DNA from: Candidatus Kerfeldbacteria bacterium
GTDB taxonomy: Bacteria > Patescibacteriota > Patescibacteriia > SBBC01
Length of the DNA stretch: 64,000 nt
Assembly: GCA_043799405.1 (NCBI GenBank)
Contig: JAZDNT010000003.1
Coordinates: forward strand, 271,461 to 335,460
Direction of reading: 5' to 3'
Positions 19,078 through 33,027 of the stretch are shown here, piece by piece. Position 1 is the stretch's first letter; the number at the start of each line of letters is the position of its first letter. The notes under the pieces are model-generated. The model saw only the letters and a program-made list of their open reading frames with translations, had not been told where the DNA came from and did no database searches. A program made the translations under genes and the position numbers.

Positions 19078-19389
19078 ATGCCAGACAAACGCCGGTATGC
19101 GGATCGCGCCGAATATCTCAAACTCGCCGTCGCCGAACGTCGGAAGACGATCAAAGCGACGGTGGTCGAGTATAAGGGTGGCCGCTGTCAAATCTGCGGA
19201 TATCATCGATCAATCGCTGCACTCGAGTTTCATCACCGGGTAGCTGCAACGAAGCGATTCTCGATATCCGGCCAGGGTCTAACGCGTTCATGGCAACGCG
19301 TAAAACAGGAAACGGATAAGTGTTTCCTGGTGTGCGCGAACTGTCACCGCGAACTGCATGCTGGCATGCGGCCCCATAAAAAATCATAA
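19078..19389 (+). CDS. small HNH-endonuclease-family protein
   Basis: 103 aa. The CQICGY..LEFHH...CANCHRELH arrangement (CxxC..HH..CxxCH) is that of the HNH/zinc-finger nuclease fold. Confidence 0.6.
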   Translation: MPDKRRYADRAEYLKLAVAERRKTIKATVVEYKGGRCQICGYHRSIAALEFHHRVAATKRFSISGQGLTRSWQRVKQETDKCFLVCANCHRELHAGMRPHKKS

Positions 19390-19442
19390 GTACTGATTGC
19401 TCCGTAGTACCCGCGTAAAACGTTCTAAAAAACTTTGTTGAT

Positions 19443-19517
19443 TCCGAGGTAGCTCAGTGGTAGAGCAGTCGCCTGTTAAGCGATTGGTCGTGGGTTCGAG
19501 TCCCACCCTCGGAGCCA
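19443..19517 (+). tRNA. tRNA-Asn (GTT), CCA encoded
   Basis: Hand-folded cloverleaf: acceptor TCCGAGG/CCTCGGA, D arm GCTC-AGTGGTA-GAGC, anticodon arm GTCGC-CTGTTAA-GCGAT, T arm GTGGG-TTCGAGT-CCCAC, discriminator G, CCA. 75 nt. Confidence 0.9.
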
Positions 19518-19595
19518 ACAAAGTTTTTTTGTTCTAGAAAAATTATTCGAAATATAAGCACTGATGCCTACGACGCAGGTTCTCCCGCAACCTTG

Positions 19596-19712
19596 ATTTA
19601 ATAATTTATGGAAGGCGGGATCCCGCTCCGTCGCGTAATACGTGGCTCCGCGGGAGAATCCTTGCCCCGAACCACGTAGGGTTCGGGTCTGTCCCCGGGG
19701 CCACATTACGTG
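19596..19712. repeat. GC-rich multi-hairpin intergenic element
   Basis: Palindromes gcgggatcccgc and ccccgggg. Hairpin cccgaacc-acgta-ggttcggg. The flanking gcgtaatacgtggc / gccacattacgtgc are imperfectly complementary. gggatcccgc..tccgtcgc resembles gggctcccgcc..gccgtcgc at 18964..18985. Confidence 0.4.
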
Positions 19713-19726
19713 CGAGAAGCCAAGTA

Positions 19727-19755
19727 ACGACAATCCCCTTCTTTTTTTGTATACT
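19727..19755 (+). promoter_or_regulatory. putative promoter of the ferredoxin-hydrogenase operon
   Basis: ACGACA - 17 nt - TATACT, about 45 nt upstream of ATG 19800. The same TATACT -10 hexamer is seen upstream of the HU gene. The -35 is weak. Confidence 0.3.
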
Positions 19756-19799
19756 GTATCCATCAACCACGTATCGACAACTAACGAAAGGGATTCATT

Positions 19800-20081
19800 A
19801 TGGCCGATGAAAAAAAGAAGGTGAAGAAGGTCGTCGTGAACCGCGACCTCTGCATTGGCGCGGCGAGCTGTATCGTGAATGCGCCGGGTGTTTTTGAGCT
19901 CGACGCCGAGAACAAGGCGGTCATGAAGCTCGACAAGGGCGCGAAGAGCTCCGGTCCTTCGGAACGGAAAGACCTCGAAGACAAAACAATCGACGACGAA
20001 ACGATCATCAATGCAGCGCAGTCCTGCCCGACCAAGGCGATCTTCGTGTACGACGAGGACGGGAAGCAGATCTATCCATGA
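19800..20081 (+). CDS. small single-cluster ferredoxin
   Basis: 93 aa. The DLCIGAASC ... SCPTKAI pattern (CxxxxxC...CP) matches [3Fe-4S]/[4Fe-4S] mono-cluster ferredoxins. ATGA overlap with the next gene. Confidence 0.7.
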   Translation: MADEKKKVKKVVVNRDLCIGAASCIVNAPGVFELDAENKAVMKLDKGAKSSGPSERKDLEDKTIDDETIINAAQSCPTKAIFVYDEDGKQIYP

Positions 20082-21322
20082 TACAGACGAAGTACCTGAT
20101 CGTCGGGGGCGGGGTCGCAGGAACCTCCGCTGCCGAGACCATCCGGCTGAAAGACAAGACGTCAAGCATCCACATCGTCTCGGACGAACCGTACCGGTTC
20201 TACTCGCGCATCATGCTGTCAAAGCCATCGTTCTTCCTCGGGAAGATCCCGTTCGATTCGGTCTTCCTAAAATCGGAGTCGTGGGCAAAGGATAACAGCA
20301 TCAGTACGACGTTCAGGCAGCGGGTTGTCTCTTTGGATACGAAGAAGAAGCTTGTGACGCTGAAGGACGGCAACGAGATCGCCTACGAGAAGCTCCTGCT
20401 GGCGCTCGGCTGCGACGTTTGTCGCTGGACCATCCCCGGAGCAGACAAAAAAGGCGTTCACTACCTCCGTACGCTCGATGACGCGAAGGGCATCATTGCG
20501 GACGTGAAGACAGCGAAGAAAGCGGTCGTCATCGGAGGCGGGTTCATCGGCTTCGAAATGTGCGACATGCTGAAGCTCGCAGGCCTCGATGTAACGCTCA
20601 TCATCCGCGAGAAGTACTTTTGGGAGCCTCTGCTCGATGAGCCGTCCGGACGCATGATCGAAGCGGCACTGAAAAAAGGAGGAGTGAACATCGTTTACGA
20701 AACGCTCGTTGATGAGGTCATTGGCAGAACACGCGTCGAGGGAGTGAAGCTCAATAGCGGAGCGACCATGCCGGTCGACATGATCATCGTCGGGATCGGG
20801 ACGAAGACCACGCTCGACTGGATTAAAAATGCCGGGATCTCCTGCAACCGAGGCGTACTGGCGAACGAATTCTTGCAGACGTCCGCGCCGGACGTATACA
20901 CTGCCGGCGACTCTGCCGAGTACGGGGACAGGATCCTGAACGAATACATCCAGTTCGGCAACTGGGCGAATGCGCAGCTGCAGGGCAAAATAGCAGCAGA
21001 GAACATGATGGGCGGTAACATACCGTTCAAACACGTCTCGTTCTATACTGCACAGGGCCTCGGGACCGCGATCGTGTTTGCCGGCGACATTCGCATACTC
21101 CCCGGAAGAACGGTCGTAACGCGGGGAATGCCCGCATCCGGGGGCTATACCCGCATCATCATTTGGAACGGCGAGGTTGAAGGTGCTACGATGATCAACA
21201 GGACCGTCGACCTGCAGCCGCTTCTGAAAATCATTGAACAGGATGTTAAAATTGAGCCGTACTTGAAACAGCTTGCTGACCCTTCATTCGACCTGAAGTC
21301 GATACCTTTGCAGAAACCATGA
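20078..21322 (+). CDS. FAD-dependent pyridine-nucleotide oxidoreductase (ferredoxin/rubredoxin reductase-like)
   Basis: 414 aa. FAD fold YLIVGGGVAGTSAAE, NAD(P) fold AVVIGGGFIGFEM, and TAGD motif VYTAGDSAE. Overall layout is that of class-I two-dinucleotide-binding-domain flavoproteins. Confidence 0.75.
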   Translation: MIQTKYLIVGGGVAGTSAAETIRLKDKTSSIHIVSDEPYRFYSRIMLSKPSFFLGKIPFDSVFLKSESWAKDNSISTTFRQRVVSLDTKKKLVTLKDGNEIAYEKLLLALGCDVCRWTIPGADKKGVHYLRTLDDAKGIIADVKTAKKAVVIGGGFIGFEMCDMLKLAGLDVTLIIREKYFWEPLLDEPSGRMIEAALKKGGVNIVYETLVDEVIGRTRVEGVKLNSGATMPVDMIIVGIGTKTTLDWIKNAGISCNRGVLANEFLQTSAPDVYTAGDSAEYGDRILNEYIQFGNWANAQLQGKIAAENMMGGNIPFKHVSFYTAQGLGTAIVFAGDIRILPGRTVVTRGMPASGGYTRIIIWNGEVEGATMINRTVDLQPLLKIIEQDVKIEPYLKQLADPSFDLKSIPLQKP

Positions 21323-21400
21323 TCCCGTTAGAAGTCCCCTTAATAAAACATTGAACATGAACGACCATGGCCAACTTGCCAAAAGTTACTTCTAACGGGA
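21323..21400. mobile_element. MITE-like element copy 1 (78 bp) at oxidoreductase-stop / hydrogenase-start junction
   Basis: TIRs tcccgttagaagt (21323..) and acttctaacggga (..21400) are perfect. Flanked by tga (21320..21322) and tga (21401..21403). The interior is homologous to copy 2. Confidence 0.65.
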
Positions 21401-21888
21401 TGACGCCGCCGAAGAAAAAGATACGCATTGGATGGTTCTCGTTCTCGTGCTGCGAGGACAGCACCATCGTGTTCACCGAGCTCATGAACGACCACTGGAA
21501 GGAGTGGAAGGAGCTCTTCGACTTCCGGCACGCGCACGTATTGAAAAGCAAGAATGTCATGGACGACATGGACATCGCGTTCGTTGAGGGAGCTATCGCA
21601 TCGGAAGCGCATGCAAAAAAGCTCAAGACCATCAGGAGCAAGGCGAAAAAGCTCGTCGCGATCGGCTCCTGCGCGGTCATTGGTATGCCGTCTGCACAAC
21701 GGAACAGCTTTACGCCGGAACAAATGCACGAGATACAGTTCCTCATCGACCGGTTCAAGGCGCTGCCAAAAGTATTAAGGGTGTCTGACGTCGTGAAGGT
21801 CGATGCGCAGGTTCCCGGCTGCCCCATGGATCCGAAGCTCTTCCTCGCTGCAGTGGATGGACTTGTCAAGGAATTTCTTAACGCCTGA
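21400..21888 (+). CDS. [NiFe]-hydrogenase small subunit (short, proximal-cluster-only type)
   Basis: MTPPKKKIRIGWFSFSCCEDS..., GSCAVIG and VPGCPMD supply the four Cys of a proximal [4Fe-4S] cluster, as in NuoB/HoxY-like short small subunits. The ORF track start at 21367 is an in-frame ATG inside the inserted element. Confidence 0.75.
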   Translation: MTPPKKKIRIGWFSFSCCEDSTIVFTELMNDHWKEWKELFDFRHAHVLKSKNVMDDMDIAFVEGAIASEAHAKKLKTIRSKAKKLVAIGSCAVIGMPSAQRNSFTPEQMHEIQFLIDRFKALPKVLRVSDVVKVDAQVPGCPMDPKLFLAAVDGLVKEFLNA

Positions 21889-21891
21889 CCT

Positions 21892-23211
21892 ATGCACACG
21901 ATAGACCTCACCATGGACCGCATCTCGAAGATCGAGGGTTCGGCGTCGCTCGACGTCAAGGTCGTGGACGACAAGGTCACGGAATGCCACTTCAAAACGA
22001 CGGAGTACAAACGCTTCTACGTCGAGGCGATGAAGGGAAAGCCTATCATCGCGCTGCCGCAGCTTTTGTCGCGTATCTGCGGCACGTGCTCGAACGCGCA
22101 CCTCTTGTGTAGTATCGCGGCGTGCGAGGATGCGCTCGGCATCGTCCCGAGTATGCAGACCATGCTGCTCCGGTGGCTCACCATGTATGGCCTGAACATT
22201 CGCGACCACGCCCTGCACCTCTACCTCTTTTCGATGCCGGACCTCTACGGCAAGGACGCGTTCCTCGATTTCGACGAGAACGACCCGGAGCAGCACCAGC
22301 AGCTGCACGACGGCTTTGAAATAAAAGCGGCTGGAAATTTCCTTGCGACCCTCGTTGCTGGCCGTAGCGTGCACGCACTCCACCCGACGATCGGCGGATT
22401 TCTACGCTTCCCCGATGCCGAAGGTATCAAAGAAGCGATCACAAAGCTCGAGAAAGCGCGCCCAGCTGTTCTGCGGCTCATCGACACGTTCGCGAAAGCG
22501 CCGTTCCACCTTGACCGGAAAACGCACTATATGGCGCTCGTTCCCGAACGGTTCGGATACCTGACCGGCTCGATCTACAGGACCGATACCGGCGAAACGA
22601 TCCCGCCGCGCGAGTTCCGGCAGCACCTTGAGCATGTCGTTCTCCCCTACTCGCAGGCATCAGCGTACAAGCACAAAGAACATTCGTACATGGTAGGTGC
22701 TCTGGCGCGCCTCAACATCGCGAAAGAAAAGCTCCACGCAAAGACAAAGCAAACGTTAGGAAAACTCCTTGACCGGTTCCCGTCAACGGATATTTTCGAC
22801 AATAACCTCGCGCAGGCTATCGAGGTTCTTCACTGCCTCGATGATGCCGTAGAGATACTTAGGACCAGCTCATTCAAACCCGAGCCGGTCGTGAAAAAGC
22901 CGTACAAAGCCGGTATCGGCATTGGTGTTATCGAAGCGCCGCGCGGAACGCTCTACCATAAGGTCGAGATCGACGACAAGGGCATTGTCAAAGGCGGCGA
23001 GGTCATCGTCCCGACGAACCAGAACCAGATAAACATCGAAGAGGATATCGTTGTCCTCGTCGAAAAGCTGTTACCTAACACAGAAAAAGAAAAGCTCGAA
23101 TTCGAGATCGAAAAGCTCATCCGCGCGTATGATCCGTGCATGAGCTGCGCCGCGCACTTTTTGAAAGTGAATTGGCAATCCCTGAAGGCGAAGCCCCGCA
23201 CCGGAGCGTAG
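21892..23211 (+). CDS. [NiFe]-hydrogenase large subunit (cytosolic group-3-like)
   Basis: 439 aa. N-terminal RICGTCSNAH and C-terminal DPCMSCAAH Ni-Fe ligand motifs. A 17-aa extension follows the His, as expected for endopeptidase processing. Confidence 0.85.
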   Translation: MHTIDLTMDRISKIEGSASLDVKVVDDKVTECHFKTTEYKRFYVEAMKGKPIIALPQLLSRICGTCSNAHLLCSIAACEDALGIVPSMQTMLLRWLTMYGLNIRDHALHLYLFSMPDLYGKDAFLDFDENDPEQHQQLHDGFEIKAAGNFLATLVAGRSVHALHPTIGGFLRFPDAEGIKEAITKLEKARPAVLRLIDTFAKAPFHLDRKTHYMALVPERFGYLTGSIYRTDTGETIPPREFRQHLEHVVLPYSQASAYKHKEHSYMVGALARLNIAKEKLHAKTKQTLGKLLDRFPSTDIFDNNLAQAIEVLHCLDDAVEILRTSSFKPEPVVKKPYKAGIGIGVIEAPRGTLYHKVEIDDKGIVKGGEVIVPTNQNQINIEEDIVVLVEKLLPNTEKEKLEFEIEKLIRAYDPCMSCAAHFLKVNWQSLKAKPRTGA

Positions 23212-23460
23212 CGACCGGTGCGTGGGTGAAGTGGGACAAAGCGTAAGCGCTGGCGAAGCGGCTATCTTTTCATTACCACCTCCCCGTCCTGTCGAATGAC
23301 GGGACAACCCCTCCACAGTAGCGGAGAGGTTCTTAAGGTGCCGAGCTCCATTCCTTGACATTGTTACGGATAGTGCTAACGTCAGCACGTTGCTGTCCCC
23401 ATAAACCAGTCGACCTGAACGCCTATTGACAGATCGGCAGAAACACCACGTCCCACCGCC

Positions 23461-23925
23461 ATGAGAATGGCAAGGAGTTCACTCATGTTTGAGATACCAG
23501 AGGTTCTGTATGAGATTGTGAGGATGTTTGTGCTTTGTGCCGCTGGTATTGATCTCGTTTGGACGATCGTGTATGGTTTTTCGCTCAACTACCATTTCGA
23601 CTGGCGTGAATACTTCCATATTAAGTTTGTGGTCTACGGCGCCAGGACGCTCTTCCTCTTGGTATTTCTAGGGGTCACCCATATTACGTACAACCACCTG
23701 AACGACGAGCCAATACTGTATGGTGCGGCGAAAACGGCTGTGCTTGTGTGCGCTGTTGCGTACATACTGTACGATGTCGTGATGGCGCTCTATCATGGCA
23801 TCCGTGATTTCCGTGGGTATTCGGACCCGGAATGGCCCATATCACTGATGTACCCACACGCCCTTCGTGCGTGTCTACTGGCCGTGATTGCCGGTGCGTA
23901 CTGTGGGCTCATCTGGGTCTCATGA
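23461..23925 (+). CDS. hypothetical 4-TM membrane protein
   Basis: 154-aa ORF with four hydrophobic stretches. No family recognised. Confidence 0.4.
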   Translation: MRMARSSLMFEIPEVLYEIVRMFVLCAAGIDLVWTIVYGFSLNYHFDWREYFHIKFVVYGARTLFLLVFLGVTHITYNHLNDEPILYGAAKTAVLVCAVAYILYDVVMALYHGIRDFRGYSDPEWPISLMYPHALRACLLAVIAGAYCGLIWVS

Positions 23926-24059
23926 TTCTGAACACCGGCCACGTTCTCTTCTTGAAGAGGACCATTCCGGGAGGAAGTTCTGGTATACCTCACCATCGGA
24001 CGCCCTCCGTTCGTCACCCTTTGTTCGTTCTCGTGCACCCTGCGCGAGTACGACCTACC

Positions 24060-24099
24060 GAAGCCCGAGCACTCTCTTGCCCGGGCTTCATGATTTTTT
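24060..24099 (+). terminator. putative intrinsic terminator
   Basis: gaagcccg-agcactctcttgc-cgggcttc followed by atgatttttt. Confidence 0.45.
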
Positions 24100-24136
24100 A
24101 CGCAAAAACCTCTGTTTCGACGAGTTGGTTTGCTTC

Positions 24137-24505
24137 TTAAGAAACCATCCGATCGACGAGGATCATCATTACCGCGCCGACGACCATGAGGTAGCCGAAG
24201 CGAGGCTGGAGTTTCTTGTTTCTGGATAATGCTGCAAACGCGATCAGGACAAGCCATACCGCGACCGCACCAACGGTCATAGGAACGCCGACCCTGAGAA
24301 TCTCGGAAAGGATGTGGCGGAGTCCGGCAGTGAAGAACGGCGGGTAGAACACTACCTCGCCGTGGTAGATGTGCTCCGGAATGAGCCAGGCAACCCCGCC
24401 CCAGAGCAGGGCAAGAAGCCACGCAACGTGAAAGCGCGGTGTGATCTTCTTCTTTGCAGCGGTCACGATGATTGCTGCAGTTGTCGGAGCAATGAAGCAG
24501 GCCAT
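24137..24505 (-). CDS. hypothetical membrane protein
   Basis: 122-aa ORF with 3-4 hydrophobic helices. The overlapping 209-aa Arg-rich ORF in another frame is rejected. Confidence 0.4.
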   Translation of the reverse strand: MACFIAPTTAAIIVTAAKKKITPRFHVAWLLALLWGGVAWLIPEHIYHGEVVFYPPFFTAGLRHILSEILRVGVPMTVGAVAVWLVLIAFAALSRNKKLQPRFGYLMVVGAVMMILVDRMVS

Positions 24506-24543
24506 ACCGAAAGTATAGCCGAAGTTGAGATTTTTTTACACTT

Positions 24544-24813
24544 CTACGCTGAATAGCCTCGGCGCTTCATTTTTGTATTGATGCTCATCTTTTCCCCTGG
24601 TTTTCTTACGGTTGCCACCTTTCTACCGTATGACTGCCCTTCAACACGCGCTATCAATTCTTCACCATTGATATAATCTTTCAATATTCCCTTAGCTTTT
24701 TGATAGCCCCGTTCTCTTTTCTCTGGAGTATCAATATCAGCCAATCGGAAAAATCGCTTTCGCGTATCCTCAAAAGTGTCTCCATCAATTACCTTTTTTA
24801 CTCGAACTCTCAT
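24544..24813 (-). CDS. short thermonuclease (SNase)-like protein
   Basis: VIDGDTFED..FRLADIDTPE....YGRKVATV matches SNase core motifs (DGDT, RL.GID.PE, YGR). At about 89 aa it is shorter than canonical SNase. Start at MRVRVKK; the ORF track start is 24864. Lies in the low-GC island. Confidence 0.45.
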   Translation of the reverse strand: MRVRVKKVIDGDTFEDTRKRFFRLADIDTPEKRERGYQKAKGILKDYINGEELIARVEGQSYGRKVATVRKPGEKMSINTKMKRRGYSA

Positions 24814-24829
24814 TTCTACCACCTCCTTC

Positions 24830-25717
24830 CTATGGATTGATACATGCCTTACGTTCTCGATCACTTGGTCGATCGCCCCAATCGCTCATTGCGACCGCAC
24901 AATATCCACGTAATTCAACGATTGGATGCCCGTTCCTACTATCTATAAGACCAACACTGAACACGCCACTATTACCATTCGTCTGTTCTGGCGCTTCGAC
25001 AATCCATGACGGCATCGGCCCTAATTTCATCGGATTGCCTTTGTCATCAAGAACAAGAAGGTCAACCCTGACTTGTTTTGAAATTTTTCCTTCAGGCGCT
25101 GTTATGGTTAGACAAGATGTAAATTCCTTTCCTATTGGCAGGGAAACATCGAGATGAAACCGATTTAATCTATCAACATGACCGCCTCCGTCATTGGGTT
25201 TAATGTATTCACCGTTTGCATTCACACCAGAAATTTTTTTCAGTGCAATTGTTCGGTCGTCGCCATCACCATGAATAACCTGCAGTTTATTATTCAAGCG
25301 AAACGAAAAATCAATTGAGGACGTCTGTGACAAAACCTTTGTGCAGACAAATACATTTTCTGGCATTGGTTTTGGTGACTGAATGTATCCCTGAGGATCA
25401 CGAATAGACCGTCCCTTATAACGATCTTTCCACTGTCGTCGGTAACCGTCCTCCGATAAAGTCAGAACCCCGTCATGATTCTCTAAATCATTGACTACTT
25501 GATCGCTCTTTACCCATTCCGCGAATGGCGTTCTATCAATCATCATTTCCGGTTGAGACGTTGGGCTCGGTTTCTGTTGCGTTATCCTGGCGATTGCATA
25601 TCCTCCCATTAGGCTGACCAACAATATAACAAAAGTACCCAATGACAATCCCTCCCACGACCAAAAGGTGTAACGGCGTCGGGCTCGAACATCTTGTTTG
25701 TTTTGCTTTATCTGCAT
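24830..25717 (-). CDS. hypothetical membrane-anchored protein
   Basis: 295-aa ORF with one TM helix (LSLGTFVILLVSLMGGYAIA). Low-GC codon usage. No family recognised. Confidence 0.4.
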   Translation of the reverse strand: MQIKQNKQDVRARRRYTFWSWEGLSLGTFVILLVSLMGGYAIARITQQKPSPTSQPEMMIDRTPFAEWVKSDQVVNDLENHDGVLTLSEDGYRRQWKDRYKGRSIRDPQGYIQSPKPMPENVFVCTKVLSQTSSIDFSFRLNNKLQVIHGDGDDRTIALKKISGVNANGEYIKPNDGGGHVDRLNRFHLDVSLPIGKEFTSCLTITAPEGKISKQVRVDLLVLDDKGNPMKLGPMPSWIVEAPEQTNGNSGVFSVGLIDSRNGHPIVELRGYCAVAMSDWGDRPSDRERKACINP

Positions 25718-25831
25718 ATTATCTATCTTCAGCGATGTGCCGATCTACAACGTGTGCTATAATGAGGAAGCCGAGTAATCGGCAGCAAAAAAATCTTCTC
25801 TTCGCGGGGAGGATTTTTTGCGATTCTTACT

Positions 25832-26209
25832 TCACGTTGGTTCATGTTCTTTTAGTTCAATCACGTAAATTGGTCCAATTGTTTCATCTGGTACGATTAC
25901 TGCCGGGTATTTCCCACTATATTTTAAAGGATCAATGTCGTAGAATCGTAAAAATGATCTCGCGGATATTGATGCGCTTCTGTTGGCTTCTGAATAATTC
26001 AATCGATAACAGCTATCGGACTTATCTTTAAGGAATTTAAAGGCAATTGCCTTCTTTTCTTTATCGAAAAAGAGCTCAACATAATTAAAATCAGCAACTC
26101 GGTGTTTTTCACAAAATGCGTGGGGAAGCCCAATAAAATGGGATTTCGTGAGACTTATTCGATCGTCCCATTTATCACCGACCCCTGAAAATCGTTCGAA
26201 GTTAAACAT
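25832..26209 (-). CDS. hypothetical protein
   Basis: 125-aa ORF in the low-GC island, preceded by a good promoter-like sequence. No family recognised. Confidence 0.4.
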   Translation of the reverse strand: MFNFERFSGVGDKWDDRISLTKSHFIGLPHAFCEKHRVADFNYVELFFDKEKKAIAFKFLKDKSDSCYRLNYSEANRSASISARSFLRFYDIDPLKYSGKYPAVIVPDETIGPIYVIELKEHEPT

Positions 26210-26217
26210 ATATCTGG

Positions 26218-26246
26218 AGCATATGCCTTTTCTTTTTACGTGTCAA
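26218..26246 (-). promoter_or_regulatory. putative sigma-70 promoter (near-leaderless) for 25832..26209
   Basis: Minus strand reads TTGACA - 17 nt - TATGCT. The -10 ends 8 nt before ATG 26209. Confidence 0.45.
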
Positions 26247-26317
26247 GCATAAATAGACATATTACATCACTTTTAATGACATATGTCAAAAAATGCTAAA
26301 TTTACCTCACTTCACTC

Positions 26318-27181
26318 CTATCTCATCCCCTCCAGCAGCTTTCTGATGTTCCGGCCGTTTGGCAATTGCTCAATAAGCGGTTTTTCTTTTATTGCTGTAA
26401 ACCCGTCTTCGAGTATCGGCATTTCCTTCCGGTAGAATATACCGATGGGAAGTTTTTCCTCGTTCTGTGCAGCTTTCCACGCTGCATCGCGATCCGCAGA
26501 GTTGTGCTGCAATGTTTCGAGCTTTACAACGCGGTCGTAGAACCACTTGTACGTGTTCACCTTGTTGAACGTGACGCACGGCTGGAAAATATCGACGAGC
26601 GCGAATCCGCGGAACTGGATCGCCTCTTTTATGAGCTGCGTCAGGTGCGTCGTATCACCTGCGAACCCGCGGGAAACGAATCCGCAGCCTGCAGCAAGCG
26701 CAAGCGTCAAGGGATTTACCGGCGTGTCGGTCGAGCCGAAGGGCGTCGACGGCGTCTTTGTCCCTCGCGCTGACGTCGGCGACGTCTGCCCTTTCGTCAG
26801 GCTGTACATCTGGTTATCGTGCACGAGGTACGTCACGTTCGGATTGGCGCGGATCGTGTGGATGAAGTGCGCCATGCCCTCGCCGTAGCCGTCGCCGTCT
26901 CCGCCGACCGCGATCGTCGTTACTCCGCTGTTCGCGAGCGCGATACCTTCTGCGACAGGAAGCGCCCGACCGTGCAGACCGTGGAAACCGTATGCCCTGA
27001 CGAAGTTCGCCTGGTTTCCCGAGCAGCCGATTCCGAACACGACAACGACCTTATGCACTGGAAGTTTCAGTTCGGCGAGCGCTTGCTTTAAGCTCGTCCA
27101 GAGACCGAAGTTTCCGCAGCCAGGGCACCACGTCGGAACGACCGGCGTTTTAAACTCGTCTTGTGGCTGTATCGTGCTCAT
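26318..27181 (-). CDS. 2-oxoacid:ferredoxin oxidoreductase beta subunit (TPP-binding)
   Basis: MSTIQPQDEFKTPVVPTWCPGCGNFG.., GGDGDGYGEG TPP motif. Start ATG 27181 restores the ATGA overlap once the element is removed. The ORF track start at 27199 lies inside the element. Confidence 0.85.
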   Translation of the reverse strand: MSTIQPQDEFKTPVVPTWCPGCGNFGLWTSLKQALAELKLPVHKVVVVFGIGCSGNQANFVRAYGFHGLHGRALPVAEGIALANSGVTTIAVGGDGDGYGEGMAHFIHTIRANPNVTYLVHDNQMYSLTKGQTSPTSARGTKTPSTPFGSTDTPVNPLTLALAAGCGFVSRGFAGDTTHLTQLIKEAIQFRGFALVDIFQPCVTFNKVNTYKWFYDRVVKLETLQHNSADRDAAWKAAQNEEKLPIGIFYRKEMPILEDGFTAIKEKPLIEQLPNGRNIRKLLEGMR

Positions 27182-27259
27182 CCCGTTAGAAGTCCTCATT
27201 AAATAAGATCAAATATGAACAATTGCTATCAGTATTTTTATGGGTGACTTCTAACGGGA
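27181..27259. mobile_element. MITE-like element copy 2 (79 bp) at OFOR alpha-stop / beta-start junction
   Basis: TIRs tcccgttagaagt (27181..) and acttctaacggga (..27259) are perfect. Flanked by tca (27178..27180) and tca (27260..27262), which read TGA on the coding strand. Confidence 0.65.
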
Positions 27260-29020
27260 TCATTTCTTTCTTGCAATCAAAGCAAGTTCTTTAGCAAGCT
27301 CGTCAGGGTCGAACGGCCTTCCGTCATACCGCCGTATCGAATGGTCAGGCGTGAAACCCGTGTACTCGCGGATGAAGCCGGCGAACTTTCCGCTTCGATT
27401 ACTCTCTACAATGACGGTCTTTTTCGCTTTCTTCATCGCTGCCATGAACACTTTAACGGGAAGAGGAGCTACCATCGGGACAACGACCGCGTTCGCGGTC
27501 TTTCCGTAGTTCTTTTTTAACGTTGCAAGCGCCATTTCGACCGGTCCGGCAGACGAACCCCACGTCACGACCGTGAGCGAAGCTTTTTTTGCTCCAATGA
27601 TTCGGGGTGGCATCGTCTTTTTCCGGAGCGTTGCTACTTTCCGTGCCCGACGTTCCATCTGCGCTATGCGGTGGTCCTTGTCCTCGTTCGAAAATCCGTA
27701 CTCGTCGTGCTCGTCCGAGTTCGCAAGGAACAGTCCTTTCGGGGTTCCCGGGATGGCGCGCGGACAGATCCCGTCAGTGACCCTTTCGCGGTATCGCAAG
27801 TAAGTTCCTTCCCCTTTCCATACCTTACCGCGCTTGATAGGAAGCGTTTTTAGGTCCTTCACTGCGACGCTGCAACGCCCTTCAGCAAGGTACTTGTCCG
27901 TCAGCACGATGACCGGCGTCTGGTAGACGTCCGCAAGGTTGAATGCGTGCTGGATAAGCGTAAAGCACTCGGCGTGCGAGGTCGGCGCCAGCACGATGCG
28001 CGGAAAGTCGCCCTGCGAAGCGTGCAAAACCTGCCGAAGGTCGCCCTGCTCGGTCCACGTCGGCATGCCAGTCGACGGTCCCGGACGCTGCGCATCAATG
28101 ATGACGATACCGACCTCGGTCATGGCGGCAAGACCGACCGCCTCGGTCATGAGCGAAAATCCCCCGCCGGACGTTGCTGTCATAGCGCGGACGCCCGCGT
28201 ACGCAGCGCCGATCGCGTTGTTGACCGCTGCGATCTCGTCTTCGGAGTGCCGTACGACCATCCCAAAACCTGGTCCATGCTGGGCTAAAAAGTGCAGGAT
28301 GGACGTTGCCGGGGTCATCGGGTATGCCGAGAAGAACTGGCAGCCGGCCTGGATGGCGCCGAGCGCTAGAGCATCGTTTCCCGTAAGCAGCACCCGCGTA
28401 TCCTTCGTTTTCGCGGGTGTAACCTGCCAGGGACAGCTCTTTCTCTGTGCGCTCGTTGCTGCCTTGTAGCCGGAAGCAAGCACGTCCGCGTTGAGCTTAA
28501 TAACCTCATCCCCTTTTTTACCGAACGTCTCGTCGATCACTTCATTCAGGTTGTCGAGTGGAATATCTAAAAGCGCGCAACTTGCACCGAGTGCCACGGT
28601 GTTACGCATCAGGACCTCTCCGCCGGATTTCTTTGCAAGGTCTTCTAACGGCAGACCGAACAGCAGCACATCGCGGCGCGAAACCTTCGATGGATCGAAC
28701 TTGGCAAACGTTGTATCCGTCGTATCATAGATGATCACGCCGTTCGGGCTCATCTCGGATAGGTGCAGGTCGATAGTCTCGCGGTTCAGCGCAACGAGGA
28801 TGCTGACCGATGTCCTATGGCTCGTGAGCGGCTCGGCTGAAGCCGTGACCTGGTCGGTATTGTGCCCGCCGCGTATGAGCGACGGGTACTCCGGGTAGCT
28901 GAAAACGTTCAGGCCCGCCCGCATGCAGATGCGCGCGAACATTTCTCCGGTCGACATGATGCCGAAACCGGCTTCGCCGCCTATTTTCCACGTGATGTCG
29001 TTCGTTCGTGCTGGCATCAT
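27260..29020 (-). CDS. 2-oxoacid:ferredoxin oxidoreductase alpha subunit (fused gamma-alpha type)
   Basis: 586 aa. N-terminal gamma-like WKIGGEAGFGIMSTGEMFA, then the pyrimidine-binding/transketolase-like alpha domain (YPMTPAT..., GFSLMTEA). Confidence 0.85.
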   Translation of the reverse strand: MMPARTNDITWKIGGEAGFGIMSTGEMFARICMRAGLNVFSYPEYPSLIRGGHNTDQVTASAEPLTSHRTSVSILVALNRETIDLHLSEMSPNGVIIYDTTDTTFAKFDPSKVSRRDVLLFGLPLEDLAKKSGGEVLMRNTVALGASCALLDIPLDNLNEVIDETFGKKGDEVIKLNADVLASGYKAATSAQRKSCPWQVTPAKTKDTRVLLTGNDALALGAIQAGCQFFSAYPMTPATSILHFLAQHGPGFGMVVRHSEDEIAAVNNAIGAAYAGVRAMTATSGGGFSLMTEAVGLAAMTEVGIVIIDAQRPGPSTGMPTWTEQGDLRQVLHASQGDFPRIVLAPTSHAECFTLIQHAFNLADVYQTPVIVLTDKYLAEGRCSVAVKDLKTLPIKRGKVWKGEGTYLRYRERVTDGICPRAIPGTPKGLFLANSDEHDEYGFSNEDKDHRIAQMERRARKVATLRKKTMPPRIIGAKKASLTVVTWGSSAGPVEMALATLKKNYGKTANAVVVPMVAPLPVKVFMAAMKKAKKTVIVESNRSGKFAGFIREYTGFTPDHSIRRYDGRPFDPDELAKELALIARKK

Positions 29021-29110: not shown

Positions 29111-30235
29111 TCATGCAGCAACCGCGTCAACAATGGCCTGCTCCTCGTCCGTCGGTACCATGAATGTACGGATGCCCCGTGCTGCCGGAAGGTCACGCAG
29201 GATCATCTGCCGGATGATACGTTTTCCGCTGATCGGTCCGGTAAAGACGATCGCCTGTACAGTACTACTGAGCCCAAGGTATGCGGCAAGGTAGCGCCGG
29301 ATACGGTACGTGTAGACACCAAGCGCGAGTCTCGCCCGTGCTCTGACGGCTGCCGTGTATTTCCTGCGAGGCCACCCTGCTACAGGTTTTCCTATTGCTC
29401 CGAGAATGTCGCGCATGTCTTTGAGACCGCAGAGTCCAAAAAGGCCGGACTCATGCTCGAGAAGATATTTTACACGTTCAGCAGACCACCCGAGTTTGCT
29501 TTGTATATACAGCGGGATCGCAGGATCAATGTCGCCAGAACGCGTGAGCATTGTTAATCCCTCGAGCGGCGTAAAACCCATTGTCGTATCGACCGGTACA
29601 CCGTTCTGCCACAGTGTCATACTCGCTCCTGCGCCGAGGTGAATTGTTACAGCAGAAAATGACCGCAACGGCTTCCGAAGCTTCTTAGCTCCCTGACGGA
29701 AAACCCACGCGTGCGATGTGCCGTGAAATCCGTACCTTTCTATTGCAAGGAGCGTTGCTAAACGCCTCGGGATCGCATACGTTCGTGCGTGTTCAGGAAG
29801 CGAGCGGTATATCGCCGTATCGAACACGCCCCATTGTAAAGCCTTTGGCCACACCCGTTTCGCAAAAGAAACGCCTAAAAGGTTCGCGGGCTGATGCAGC
29901 GGCGCAAGATCAGCAAGCGTTTTTAAGTACTGGATAACAGACGGCGTCAGCCTCATGGGTTTTGAGAACCGCTTTCCGCCATGCACGATGCGGTGTGCTA
30001 TGATGTCAGGTTTAATCCCATAATCCGCAGCAACTCGCCGTACTTCGACGAGAGCTGATCTCAGATCTGGGACGTTCGCAACCCGAGTACGACGGCGGCC
30101 TTCTGAAACGACGTGTATGCGCGCCTGACGACCGAAGTGCTCAACAAACCCCCGCAGTACGATACGGCGGTTCTGGGCTACGGCGAACTTTACCGAGGAA
30201 GAACCAGCATTGAGAACGACGACATTCCGGGTCAT
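29111..30235 (-). CDS. ackA: acetate kinase
   Basis: 374 aa. VLNAGSSSVKF, HRIVHGG, ERYGFHGTSH and GDIDP motifs of the acetate/propionate kinase family. Confidence 0.85.
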   Translation of the reverse strand: MTRNVVVLNAGSSSVKFAVAQNRRIVLRGFVEHFGRQARIHVVSEGRRRTRVANVPDLRSALVEVRRVAADYGIKPDIIAHRIVHGGKRFSKPMRLTPSVIQYLKTLADLAPLHQPANLLGVSFAKRVWPKALQWGVFDTAIYRSLPEHARTYAIPRRLATLLAIERYGFHGTSHAWVFRQGAKKLRKPLRSFSAVTIHLGAGASMTLWQNGVPVDTTMGFTPLEGLTMLTRSGDIDPAIPLYIQSKLGWSAERVKYLLEHESGLFGLCGLKDMRDILGAIGKPVAGWPRRKYTAAVRARARLALGVYTYRIRRYLAAYLGLSSTVQAIVFTGPISGKRIIRQMILRDLPAARGIRTFMVPTDEEQAIVDAVAA

Positions 30236-30236
30236 A

Positions 30237-30800
30237 TCATTTCACCACATCAGCGGTCATGCCGGGAACGACGCCACAGGCGTTTCCTTCGTCAGTGTCG
30301 AGGTGGAGCCGTGTTGTAAAATCTCTGTCAACACGGGCATAGACGTTGTTGAGGAGCGCACCTCGCGGTCCGCCGACACGCACCGAGATAACCTGACGGT
30401 CAGAAAGCCCGAGCGTTTTCGCGTCATCGGGGCTTAAGTGAAGGTGGCGCTGTTGGATGATTGCGGCGGGTTTTGTGATTTCGCCAACTGGCCCTTCGAT
30501 TGTTATTGTCGCTGCGTTGTCGAGAAGACCCGAATCGCTTAATGGTGGCGCAATACCTAAGTGCCGCGCTTCTGTTAATGAAAGCTCGACTTGCGTGTAC
30601 TGCCTGAACGGTCCGACGACGCCGACGTTTGCGTACTCGCCCTTTGGTCCCTTAAGTACGACCCGCTCCTTTGCGACGAACTGTTTAGGGAGCGATATCG
30701 GATGGTCCAGCGTCATCTCCGCCGTACCGAAAAGCTTGACCCAATCGTCTTTGGTGATATGTATGTGGCGTGCGGATAGTTCAATTGGTATGGATATCAT
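30237..30800 (-). CDS. pduL: phosphate acyltransferase PduL type
   Basis: 187 aa with two PduL repeats (IELSARHIHI.. and QQRHLHLSPDDA..). Sits immediately upstream of ackA (1-nt gap). Confidence 0.75.
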   Translation of the reverse strand: MISIPIELSARHIHITKDDWVKLFGTAEMTLDHPISLPKQFVAKERVVLKGPKGEYANVGVVGPFRQYTQVELSLTEARHLGIAPPLSDSGLLDNAATITIEGPVGEITKPAAIIQQRHLHLSPDDAKTLGLSDRQVISVRVGGPRGALLNNVYARVDRDFTTRLHLDTDEGNACGVVPGMTADVVK

Positions 30801-31222
30801 GGTCGCTGATGTATGGTTTTCGAACGTTCTTTCATAATACCGCTTCCGCCCGACAGACGCAAAAGTATAGAAACGATGTTACGATGTGCTACTATCTCAT
30901 TAATCGTTGGCGGAACGCCGATGATGGTCACTTTTTTTAGCCTACCGAGCTTCTGTAATAGCCGCAGCTGCGTCAGCGCGTCAAAGTCATGCACCGAAAC
31001 TCTCGGGGTTCTTTCAAATGTAGCGAGGTCGCTAAAGACCTGTACAGTATCAATGCCAACGACAGCGTCGATCACGACGAGGCGTTCGGGCGTTTCCCAT
31101 TCTTCGTTCGGATCTTTTACCTCGAACGCTATATCCGGGCATGATTTCCGAAGGCCAGCAAGGAGCCGAATGGGCAGCGCGTCGCCGGGAAGGTCGGGGT
31201 TTCCGAAAACGTAGACTGTCAT
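30797..31222 (-). CDS. hydrogenase maturation endopeptidase (HycI/HoxW family)
   Basis: MTVYVFGNPDLPGDALP.., VVIDAV, SVHDF correspond to the GNxxxxD / D / H metal-binding positions of hydrogenase C-terminal proteases. The ORF track start is 31234. Confidence 0.7.
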   Translation of the reverse strand: MTVYVFGNPDLPGDALPIRLLAGLRKSCPDIAFEVKDPNEEWETPERLVVIDAVVGIDTVQVFSDLATFERTPRVSVHDFDALTQLRLLQKLGRLKKVTIIGVPPTINEIVAHRNIVSILLRLSGGSGIMKERSKTIHQRP

Positions 31223-31349
31223 ACCCACCCCCATACCGTCGTATTCCTGAAGCCACGCGCCATGGCTGAAGGATCTCCTTTTGTCCTAAGGAGATTCTTC
31301 GGCTCCACATTGTTCCGCCTCAGAATTACGATGTAGGGGCATCGCTGGA

Positions 31350-32084
31350 TCATAGCGTCTCGTTCGCGAACCGGATGTGAGAAAGGGTCCTGCGCTTGAG
31401 TTCAGAGACCTGCTCCGCGGATACGACCTCGCACGGCACGTCCCAGTGCATCGTTACGAGCTGTCCGGGCGCCAGCGATTCGATGTCGCCCTCTGCACCA
31501 AGGTTCCGTACGATCCTTTTACTCATCGCCTTTCCTAGAGCAAGTTTTCCGTTCACAAGAACTAACGGCTCGGTTTCAACGTTGATGAACGGTCCGTCGA
31601 CGCTCTGCACCTTGCCCCAGCTGATGCGGCAGGAATCCATGCTAAGAAGCGTATGTTCGCGTTCGAGGTTGCCCGTACGCTTCCAAATATCGAACACGTG
31701 GAACGAGTGGTGCGGAACCGCACCCCGGACCGCTTTTCCGCCGAGCAGCTCTAGGGTTACGCGTCCCATACGCTTACCGATCTGCTGCTCATCGCGGAGG
31801 TGGTTGTAAAACGCCCTCACCCTGACCATATCAAGGAGATGATTCCCGATCCAGTATGCCTCAACGACACGCTCGTCGAACGCATCACGGATGTTGTTCG
31901 CGTCCGCGATGAGCCGGAGGTACGGGTACATGGTCTTGAACCCCTTGAGGATGCTCTCGAGGCCGGGGTCAGAAGCCTTGCTGTCGATGTGCGCCAAGAG
32001 CTCCTGATTCGCATCAGGACCGCAGTAGTGCAGACGGTTCGGACCGAACGCGTACCGGCTGCACCGTAGCAATCCATCCATCAT
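31350..32084 (-). CDS. conserved hypothetical protein with HypC/HupF-like C-terminal half
   Basis: 244 aa. Residues ~150-235 (SCRISWGKVQSVDGPFINVE...APGQLVTMHWDVPCEVVSAEQV) align by eye with HypC (MCIGVPGQI..IDG..A.V......GQWVLVHVGFA...I.E.EA). The N-terminal 150 aa are unassigned. First gene of the protease-pduL-ackA-OFOR operon. Confidence 0.45.
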   Translation of the reverse strand: MMDGLLRCSRYAFGPNRLHYCGPDANQELLAHIDSKASDPGLESILKGFKTMYPYLRLIADANNIRDAFDERVVEAYWIGNHLLDMVRVRAFYNHLRDEQQIGKRMGRVTLELLGGKAVRGAVPHHSFHVFDIWKRTGNLEREHTLLSMDSCRISWGKVQSVDGPFINVETEPLVLVNGKLALGKAMSKRIVRNLGAEGDIESLAPGQLVTMHWDVPCEVVSAEQVSELKRRTLSHIRFANETL

Positions 32085-32094
32085 ACGCGATCTA

Positions 32095-33027
32095 TTAGAT
32101 CTGCTGGTTCATCGTCGGCCGACTTACTACAGGGAGCGAGGATGAACGCCGGGTAAAAACGACCACAAGTACGACACCGATGGATATGAAAAACGAATTC
32201 ATGAACTGGACGAGCGGGAACGTGTGCGTAATGAACAGCGCTGAGAGCACGTTCGTAATGAGCGTCGCAGGAACGAGCAGGGTCGCGACATACGTCGCCG
32301 GCGCGCGCTTCAGCGCTGCGTACCACGTCAGGACGTATCCCAAGAGCAGAGCGCTCGAAAGCAGCGTCCAGCCCCACTGTGTCGCGTTCACGTGTGCGAT
32401 TGCTCCGCCGCCTCCGCGTATTCCGACGACACCGTATAGGACAATAGATCCAACTACCATACGTGCAGCAGCAACCGTCGTACTTGAGATATCTTTGAGC
32501 GCGACCTTTGCGATGATGTTCTCGATCGCCCAGAAAAGCGTCGCGCCGAGGATCATGAGCTCGCCAATGTTGAGTTTAAAACCGATAAATCCACCGACGA
32601 AAAGGTTCGCGACCGCAATGAGCCCGATGCCTGCCCACTGCAACCCCGTCATCCGTTCTTTCAGGATTGGAATGGCCAGTAGCAGCACCCAGAGGAACAG
32701 TGATTTATGGATTAGAGAGGCATTGAGCGCCGATGTGCCTGCTAGACCAATGAAGAAAAGAGCGAACGGTACTGAGCCGCCGATGATGCCGATAGCTATG
32801 AGTTTTGTCCAGTGTTTTCGTGTAAGTGTCCTGATTTCGCGCCACTGTTTGAAACACAGAATGATTCCGACCAACAATAAAGCCACGATTGCGTTCTTCA
32901 GCGTCGTGAATACGAGCGGGTCTTTTACCGCGGTCACACCGATCTTGCCAATATAATTACTGAACCCGGAGATAGTCGCGGTTGCAAGCGCGAGGAGCGT
33001 TGCGGAAACGATGGGCGATTGCCTCAT
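32095..33027 (-). CDS. EamA/DMT-family transporter
   Basis: 310 aa, 10 hydrophobic helices in two halves, typical of the drug/metabolite transporter superfamily. Confidence 0.75.
   Translation of the reverse strand: MRQSPIVSATLLALATATISGFSNYIGKIGVTAVKDPLVFTTLKNAIVALLLVGIILCFKQWREIRTLTRKHWTKLIAIGIIGGSVPFALFFIGLAGTSALNASLIHKSLFLWVLLLAIPILKERMTGLQWAGIGLIAVANLFVGGFIGFKLNIGELMILGATLFWAIENIIAKVALKDISSTTVAAARMVVGSIVLYGVVGIRGGGGAIAHVNATQWGWTLLSSALLLGYVLTWYAALKRAPATYVATLLVPATLITNVLSALFITHTFPLVQFMNSFFISIGVVLVVVFTRRSSSLPVVSRPTMNQQI

Follow-up and report, generated by a model that had tools for sequence, protein, structure and literature searches.

How does a [NiFe]-hydrogenase that consists of no more than a small and a large subunit exchange electrons with the rest of its cell? 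The question is raised by a locus of a Candidatus Kerfeldbacteria bacterium, a member of the Candidate Phyla Radiation (CPR), in which four co-directional open reading frames (ORFs) on the + strand occupy positions 19800-23211 of a 64,000-nucleotide stretch of contig JAZDNT010000003.1 (the window). In order, they encode a ferredoxin, a flavoprotein and the small and large hydrogenase subunits, and our analysis confirmed the four-gene hydrogenase operon that an earlier reading of the letters and ORFs (the sequence-only reading) had described. The reading that we prefer, at a probability of roughly 60%, is that the minimal hydrogenase dimer, the ferredoxin and the flavoprotein would form a three-way hub between NAD(P)H, H2 and ferredoxin reduced by a 2-oxoacid:ferredoxin oxidoreductase (OFOR), with net evolution of H2 as an electron sink of fermentation.

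The operon and the class of its hydrogenase

The ferredoxin gene (19800..20081, +; 93 amino acids (aa)) matches the Pfam family Fer4_15 with E 1e-12. Its stop overlaps by 4 nucleotides (nt; ATGA) the start of the FAD reductase gene (20078..21322, +; 414 aa; Pyr_redox_2 with E 1.7e-54 plus Reductase_C), and the two genes are translationally coupled. The small-subunit gene follows (21367..21888, +; Oxidored_q6, E 7e-19), and the large-subunit gene (21892..23211, +; 439 aa; NiFeSe_Hases, E 8e-28) begins 3 nt past its stop. The ORFs and the Pfam and NCBIfam matches agree with the gene order, lengths and ATGA coupling first read from the letters; the small-subunit length of about 162 aa given at that time is the count from Met12, and that from the first ATG is 173 aa. 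A spacer of 44 nt (21323-21366) separates the reductase and small-subunit genes, where the close relatives L003 and L004 have a 4-nt overlap. A promoter and terminator scan of 19300-24000 gave only weak promoter-like sites and no terminator-like site, and did not define the transcript. The source genome comprises 1.03 Mb on four contigs and is 87.9% complete, a figure that applies to every search of it reported here; the gene at 21892-23211 encodes its sole [NiFe] large subunit.

The large subunit carries the motifs RICGTCSNAH (residues 61-70) and DPCMSCAAH (414-422) followed by a tail of 17 residues, so that both motifs and the cleavable tail were found as first read. In 30 aligned relatives, which are 46-78% identical to the window protein, R61-C63-C66-H70, C416-C419, E15 and R351 are invariant and H422 is present in all but one; the relatives' large subunits likewise end in a short tail, FLKVxW... 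In one related locus (L023:5396-6680) the large subunit is matched in three overlapping pieces (1-34, 32-352 and 350-428), which suggests frameshifts, whether in a pseudogene or introduced by assembly. Among the NCBIfam models, those of group 3b score best, namely ShyA (230.6 bits) and HydA (206.2 bits), though far below the equivalog cut-offs (700 for ShyA). The best matches in the PDB are the alpha subunit of P. furiosus SHI and the T. kodakarensis 3b enzyme, at ~204 bits, with Mvh, HydABCSL, Hox and Frh at 96-130. Since the large subunit matches group 3b models and structures best, a group 4 or NuoB/NuoD-type enzyme was ruled out.

Jaffe et al. 2020 (BMC Biol 18:69, PMC7304191) divided the group-3b-related hydrogenases of the CPR into hyd1, with beta and gamma subunits, and hyd2, which has a patchy distribution, a small subunit that is truncated throughout (mean 164 aa) and neither beta nor gamma subunit. 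Close to some of the hyd2 loci they noted a protein of PF07992 and a small Fe-S protein, and they termed the function uncertain. Canonical four-subunit 3b enzymes occur in other CPR bacteria (PMC10811913). We sampled 401 genomes of the same class as the window genome, 142 of which carry a [NiFe] large subunit. Identity to the window large subunit is bimodal in this sample: 56 genomes are at 47-79% (hyd2) and some 86 at 29-37% (hyd1). The window enzyme has a CPR host, a 3b-related large subunit and a truncated small subunit, and lacks beta and gamma subunits; it is thus a member of the published hyd2 clade, and the enzyme type is already known. Relatives of the window locus come from metagenome-assembled genomes of Patescibacteria/Parcubacteria. 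Classification therefore yields a group 3b relative, with ShyA and HydA as best models, and the arrangement is not new, being that of hyd2 in PMC7304191. No structural difference separates the two: the small subunit of 162-173 aa, the missing beta and gamma subunits and the PF07992 flavoprotein with its small Fe-S protein are all within the published description.

Of the 261 positions of the HydD model (NCBIfam), the small subunit covers no more than 3-153, and across 27 aligned relatives the only conserved cysteines are C28, C29, C102 and C152, which bears out the four proximal-cluster cysteines noted earlier. The partial HydD match and the four cysteines indicate that the proximal [4Fe-4S] cluster is kept and the domain of the medial and distal clusters is gone. 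Relatives' small subunits are 157-181 aa long. Among 1.8 billion proteins, the nearest representatives are of 145-176 aa or are fusions; canonical forms, 240-270 aa long, are first met at about E 1e-19.

Where, then, are the usual partners? The sequence-only reading had found no HydB/HydG, HoxFU, FrhB or MvhD-type proteins, and the genome searches found none either: PF10418 (HydG/HyhG type), PF01512 (NuoF/HoxF), PF04432 (FrhB) and PF02662 (MvhD) have no match in the 87.9%-complete source genome, and the idea of partner subunits encoded elsewhere in it was rejected on that basis. HyhB and HyhG are not in the operon; no search was made with a HyhB-specific model, and PF10418 and PF00037 have no match in the genome. 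Compared with group 3b HyhBGSL and sulfhydrogenase I (PDB 9nez, 9e15, 5yxy), cytosolic and NAD(P)-linked enzymes whose large subunits are the nearest of solved structure and have the same L1/L2 ligand motifs, the window enzyme has a small subunit of 173 rather than ~260 aa, without the medial and distal cluster domain of the three-cluster form. In place of HyhB and HyhG, its diaphorase would be an unrelated FAD enzyme with two dinucleotide folds plus a free ferredoxin.

The flavoprotein and the ferredoxin

The flavoprotein comprises the Pfam domains Pyr_redox_2, Pyr_redox and Reductase_C and two Rossmann folds. Hidden Markov model searches, which the sequence-only reading had proposed for this protein and the ferredoxin, resolved the families of both: Fer4_15 for the ferredoxin, and Pyr_redox_2/Reductase_C for the flavoprotein, whose best NCBIfam models are the ferredoxin-NAD reductases PadH (223.6 bits; equivalog cut-off 475), HcaD and AndAa. 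Its closest solved structures over the full length are 3lxd, BphA4, 3fg2, TodA and putidaredoxin reductase. In the alignment, residues G10-G12-G15 and G153-G155 do not vary and no cysteine is invariant; the two GxGxxG dinucleotide folds, Reductase_C and the missing redox-active cysteine pair are those of the glutathione-reductase fold. These features support its identification as a probable ferredoxin-NAD(P)+ reductase of the BphA4/putidaredoxin-reductase type. Since a ferredoxin gene is conserved beside it, it is predicted to transfer electrons between NAD(P)H and that Fe-S protein.

The ferredoxin meets the single-cluster motif (CxxXxxC ... CP; Fer4_15/Fer4_13), and its profile matches in the PDB are single-cluster types such as D. 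africanus FdI, P. furiosus Fd and D. gigas FdII. It contains only three cysteines (C18-x2-A21-x2-C24 ... C76-P77), Ala21 replacing the fourth ligand; this pattern, including the alanine, is kept in all 16 aligned relatives. The cluster is thus likely to be [3Fe-4S], or [4Fe-4S] with a non-cysteine ligand. PF00037 (Fer4) was not found in the source genome by a search that was positive in 14 of 14 control genomes; no genuine CxxCxxCxxxCP ORF was found there, the single regular-expression match being an out-of-frame artefact, and neither the ferredoxin nor the reductase has a paralog in it. For these reasons the operon ferredoxin is the only recognisable one in the genome. A genome-wide regular expression for three-cysteine ferredoxin motifs was discarded as too permissive.

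Fusions of flavoproteins to the small subunit

The reductase and the truncated small subunit are fused in frame in at least 11 clusters at 90% identity (P0006-P0016, 574-629 aa), retrieved with the in-frame fusion of locus L024 as query. Each cluster combines PF07992, Reductase_C and Oxidored_q6 and is represented on many contigs. The linkers, of 12-50 residues, are variable and rich in Ala, Pro, Ser and Thr. The large-subunit tree places the fusion loci L024 and L027 in separate subclades, with the unfused L004 as sister of L024; there has therefore been more than one event of fusion or fission.

Two further types of flavoprotein are fused to the truncated small subunit. One is of the ferredoxin-NADP reductase (FNR) type (PF00970 + PF00175, ~400-430 aa), with one protein named as from Pacearchaeota; the other is thioredoxin reductase (TrxR)-like (PF07992 + PF13738, 440-560 aa), with several named as from Aenigmarchaeota. 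The loci of these fusions (L029 and L030) contain archaeal genes together with the same EamA, DUF6390-or-HypC and HycI neighbours. Such fusions occur in both CPR bacteria and DPANN archaea, and an NAD(P)H flavoprotein joined to a one-cluster small subunit is thus a recurring design. Further truncated forms occur among P0056, P0059, P0018, P0069 and P0077; this set includes intein-bearing proteins (LAGLIDADG and intein splicing domains), small-large subunit fusions and one 702-aa fusion of unknown make-up.

Structure prediction was applied to both arrangements. For the complex of reductase, small subunit (16-173) and large subunit (1-422) it returned a score of 0.00 ('no answer'), which carries no weight either way. 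AlphaFold2 modelled fusion P0006, from an alignment of only 11 rows, with a confident reductase part and a small-subunit domain at a predicted local distance difference test score (pLDDT) <50, the predicted template modelling score (pTM) being 0.65.

Conservation of the gene order

Among 22 species-representative related loci, nine have the order ferredoxin-reductase-small-large, two reductase-small-large, one ferredoxin-small-large and ten only small-large; the four-gene order was also seen in L058 and L060-L062. A reductase ortholog (E <=1e-100) is encoded in 17 of these 22 genomes. In the class sample it is present in only 15-16 of the 56 hyd2 genomes, in all 15 clear cases within ~4 kb of the large subunit, and in 6 of the 345 other genomes. 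One of these six apparent cases without a large subunit, G215, was rejected as a contig-end artefact: ferredoxin, reductase and small subunit stand at the end of a 2.7-kb contig. Another of the six is G363, described below. No flavoprotein was found nearby in 20 of 20 hyd2 loci picked because the reductase was not found in their genomes, and what they conserve as a core are the two hydrogenase subunits, the protease, DUF6390 and EamA.

In a large-subunit tree of 51 sequences, 23 of the 25 reductase-associated sequences fall into one clade (Shimodaira-Hasegawa-like approximate likelihood ratio test (SH-aLRT) 93), while the basal branches and the sister clade are without the reductase. The reductase label requires 3 changes on this tree against a mean of 17 when shuffled, in a test whose rows without reductase were partly chosen for lacking it and whose kin are not independent. 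The reductase tree mirrors the clade structure of the large subunit, even for unlinked copies. The linkage of flavoprotein and hydrogenase seen in the window thus stands as a real one, borne by the fusions, the four-gene order in many species and the clustering in one clade, but it is not a property of the enzyme type; the survey of gene order likewise supports it in the nine complete loci and fails to do so in the ten with small and large subunit alone and in the reductase-free core.

In some relatives (L012:3897-5891, L014:3955-5982 and L006:4214-4597) the operon is interrupted by foreign-looking genes. Those between the small and large subunits encode a protein with a Bro-N domain and others of unknown kind, one of them 675 aa long; a PF05635 (23S-rRNA-intervening-sequence protein) gene stands between the reductase and small-subunit genes.

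A proposed hub for ferredoxin, NAD(P)H and H2

Under the hub reading, the lost electron-transfer module (distal clusters, HyhB and HyhG) would have been replaced in a sub-lineage of hyd2 by the single ferredoxin and the FAD reductase. The presumed source of reduced ferredoxin is the neighbouring two-subunit OFOR, encoded on the - strand at 26318..29020 (alpha 27260-29020, beta 26318-27199; POR, POR_N, TPP_enzyme_C and PFO_beta_C). It would reduce ferredoxin while producing acetyl-CoA, from which ATP would be gained by way of a PduL-type phosphotransacylase (30237-30800, -; PF06130, E 8e-55) and an acetate kinase (29111-30235, -; PF00871, E 8e-87). Ferredoxin would pass electrons to the proximal cluster of the minimal dimer, and so to H2, and would equilibrate with NAD(P)(H) through the reductase. 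Most likely the reductase also docks on the small subunit, so that NAD(P)H could reach the Ni-Fe site as well; the net flux would be towards H2 in a fermenter without respiration. Two routes are conceivable at the junction. L027, a fusion with no adjacent ferredoxin, favours direct transfer from FAD to the proximal cluster, and the conserved order ferredoxin-reductase-small-large favours a ferredoxin bridge that would replace the medial and distal clusters. Physical coupling of reductase and hydrogenase is suggested by the recurrent in-frame fusions and by the fact that flavoproteins of two further types are joined to this small subunit. The hub reading also draws on the recurrence of the four-gene order, on the grouping of reductase-associated large subunits in one clade, on the shared direction of the maturation cassette and the PduL, acetate kinase and OFOR genes in the window, and on the occurrence of OFOR and of this ferredoxin family in nearly all hyd2 genomes checked, with the ferredoxin beside the OFOR and/or the hydrogenase in L054 and G020. 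Docking, the cofactor content of the proteins, the direction of flux and the preference for NADH or NADPH are the parts of the model that we infer; gene content, motifs, conservation, fusions and co-inheritance are its observed foundation.

Several observations weigh against this reading. As the reductase is present in so few of the hyd2 genomes, it is an accessory rather than a defining subunit. The ferredoxin gene lies directly upstream of the reductase in 5 of 6 cases in which the latter is unlinked, so that the pair also stands apart from the hydrogenase (L032-L036). A natural deletion points the same way. In G363, a genome of the same order as the window genome, 18 codons behind the reductase gene are all that is left of the small subunit, and there is no large subunit (L065:4930-6513, L071). 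The genome keeps the PduL, acetate kinase and OFOR genes convergent with the ferredoxin-reductase pair, whose proteins are 60-68% identical to those of the window, and in the reductase tree its copy is the sister of the one from the linked locus L005. The 6.5 kb upstream of PduL yielded no EamA, DUF6390 or HycI. The remnant, the missing cassette and the retained pair indicate that hydrogenase and cassette were lost together and the ferredoxin-reductase pair was kept; since the pair persists in G363, it can work without the hydrogenase. Ferredoxin and reductase are accordingly a tighter unit than reductase and hydrogenase, being paired when unlinked and surviving the hydrogenase deletion. The exact wiring is also put in question by L027, as a fusion without adjacent ferredoxin, and by L017 and L054, which have the ferredoxin without the reductase. 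Finally, HypA, B, C, D, E and F have no match in the source genome (weak matches to the HypF model are far below cut-off), so that hydrogenase activity is only predicted.

Some of these points are those that a ferredoxin-only hydrogenase would leave. The dimer would merely re-oxidise OFOR-reduced ferredoxin, the ferredoxin-reductase pair would be independent of it and share the operon by way of the common ferredoxin, and no stable complex would form. In 40 of the 56 hyd2 genomes and in the 20 selected loci there is no flavoprotein, yet OFOR and ferredoxin are kept in nearly all of those checked: OFOR alpha in 8 of 8 high-quality hyd2 genomes without reductase, and a ferredoxin of the same family in 12 of 13, directly upstream of OFOR alpha in G020. 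In L054 the order is OFOR alpha-beta, ferredoxin, EamA, DUF6390, large subunit, small subunit. The tightness of the ferredoxin-reductase pair when unlinked and after hydrogenase loss in G363 speaks for this explanation too, as does the best model of the reductase, PadH, the NAD-linking flavoprotein of an OFOR-type enzyme. However, the in-frame fusions of reductase and small subunit, and the two additional fused flavoprotein types, are hard to explain without physical coupling, and the presence of the reductase follows one large-subunit clade. We regard a hydrogenase served by ferredoxin alone as rather unlikely on this balance.

The hub reading in fact joins two proposals of the sequence-only reading. 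Its first, exchange with NAD(P)H through ferredoxin and flavoprotein, holds as regards the reductase family and the reality of the link, and is weakened by the occurrence of the pair away from the hydrogenase. Its alternative, re-oxidation by the hydrogenase of ferredoxin reduced by the OFOR, is at least as well supported, and the two are best merged.

Flanking genes and maturation

Seven co-directional genes on the - strand converge on the operon, encoding EamA, DUF6390, HycI, PduL, acetate kinase and OFOR alpha and beta. The three not yet described are an EamA/DMT-family transporter (32095..33027, -; PF00892, E 1.3e-30), a DUF6390 protein (31350..32084, -; 244 aa; PF19927, E 8e-59) and a HycI-type maturation endopeptidase (30797..31234, -; 145 aa; PF01750 at 23.4 bits, cut-off 23). 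Orthologs of HycI adjoin the large subunit in most related loci, EamA adjoins DUF6390 and the hydrogenase in loci of both CPR and DPANN, and EamA and DUF6390 are fused in L040 (2958-4634). The EamA-DUF6390-HycI cassette always accompanies hyd2 hydrogenases, in CPR and DPANN alike. Between the two convergent operons, positions 23461-26310 (G+C 0.46 against ~0.54) encode a 154-aa multi-pass membrane protein, for which no homolog was found in related loci, and several ORFs; none of these has a Pfam family.

The canonical maturation set comprises HypA-F and an endopeptidase, of which the source genome has the endopeptidase alone. HypD was found in 2 of the 22 genomes of related loci. In the class sample HypD and HypE each occur in 9 of 401 genomes (8 with both), against 142 with a large subunit; 8 of the 9 HypD genomes carry hyd1, and in the ninth (G172) no large subunit was seen. 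Among the 56 hyd2 genomes the searches found no HypD and a single HypE (G279), and those without HypD or HypE include assemblies of 1-3 contigs rated 100% complete (G216, G248, G083).

DUF6390 is a candidate maturation factor whose C-terminal domain would be distantly HypC-like. The model (pLDDT 81) has a helical N-terminal domain and a HypC-like C-terminal beta domain. An hhalign comparison with HypC-like proteins gave a probability of 69% (E 4.5e-5) and aligned the invariant Cys152 with Cys2 of HypC; the top Foldseek match is HypC 2z1c_B, a weak one (E 0.013).

With HypCDEF missing, no Ni-Fe(CN)2CO centre might be formed, and the protein could be inactive or perform some other chemistry rather than H2 cycling. 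The failure to find HypA-F in the source genome and the near-absence of HypD and HypE from hyd2 genomes, single-contig and 100%-complete ones included, are what such an explanation would predict. It is very improbable, however, given that the ligands of the metals, the Glu of the proton path and the Arg of the active site do not vary among the 30 relatives at 46-78% identity, that the dedicated HycI-type protease and the cleavable tail are retained, that the operons of L004 and L005 include genes for NicO-like nickel transporters, and that the whole cassette was lost along with the hydrogenase in G363. The same four facts argue for selection on a matured enzyme. The transporter genes (L004:3397-4086, L005:2810-3574) encode a NicO/DsbD_2-like membrane protein with the HxxxxDH nickel-transporter motif and stand between the small- and large-subunit genes.

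A wider proposal can be made tentatively, and we hold it to be possible though doubtful: in CPR and DPANN, the small subunit with its one cluster could serve as a universal adaptor that is plugged directly onto three or more unrelated NAD(P)H flavoproteins, giving the smallest NAD(P)H-linked [NiFe]-hydrogenases known, which would be matured without HypCDEF by way of EamA-DUF6390-HycI or with cofactor or maturases of a host.

Comparison with known systems

The reductase family offers the nearest parallels to the proposed hub. BphA4-BphA3, putidaredoxin reductase-putidaredoxin, 3lxd and the actinobacterial P450 chains with [3Fe-4S] ferredoxins combine a reductase of this family with an adjoining gene for a single-cluster ferredoxin. 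Rieske dioxygenase and class I P450 chains follow the same three-component logic, NAD(P)H -> FAD -> ferredoxin -> terminal enzyme. Here, in contrast, the terminal enzyme is a hydrogenase, the host is an anaerobic fermenter and the reductase is fusible to an Fe-S subunit. PadH of phenylglyoxylate:NAD+ oxidoreductase and AorC of the tungsten aldehyde oxidoreductase AorABC are flavoproteins of the same superfamily that serve as NAD-linking modules of Fe-S complexes; chain E of the AorC structure (PDB 8c0z) is a match of the window reductase (E 1.5e-32). They differ in their partner enzymes, the window locus has no polyferredoxin subunit, and the PadH score is below the equivalog cut-off.

We give hardly any credence to an electron-confurcating or bifurcating hydrogenase, a minimal analogue of HydABC/HydABCSL in which the reductase FAD would be the branch point from NAD(P)H and reduced ferredoxin to H2 or the reverse, as there is a single flavin with no extra clusters, the fusion locus L027 has no adjacent ferredoxin, no result of the analysis speaks for it, and no member of the BphA4/putidaredoxin-reductase family is known to bifurcate. 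In its favour, the ferredoxin and the cluster of the small subunit are both candidates for one-electron exchange with the flavoprotein, besides its hydride partner, and confurcation benefits fermenters that have to dispose of reduced ferredoxin as well as NADH; for other 3b enzymes of the CPR, bifurcation has already been put forward (PMC10811913).

In the literature searched we found, beyond PMC7304191, neither a statement nor an explanation of CPR hydrogenases lacking Hyp genes, nor any mention of DUF6390 or of flavoprotein-small-subunit fusions. New here, and not reported in PMC7304191, are the fusions, the clade-specific co-inheritance, the natural deletion with its independent ferredoxin-reductase pair and the scarcity of Hyp genes.

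Significance

Many metagenomic studies rely on CPR hydrogenases when they infer the cycling of hydrogen and sulfur, and hyd2 has stood without an assigned partner or function. A generic ferredoxin and reductase module, its occasional fusion to the hydrogenase and the OFOR-acetate neighbours make the function of hyd2 testable with three or four small proteins. The design would be among the simplest NAD(P)H/ferredoxin-linked [NiFe] enzymes known. The near-absence of HypCDEF beside intact, conserved hydrogenase genes, in turn, bears on how host-dependent microbes make or obtain the Ni-Fe(CN)2CO centre.

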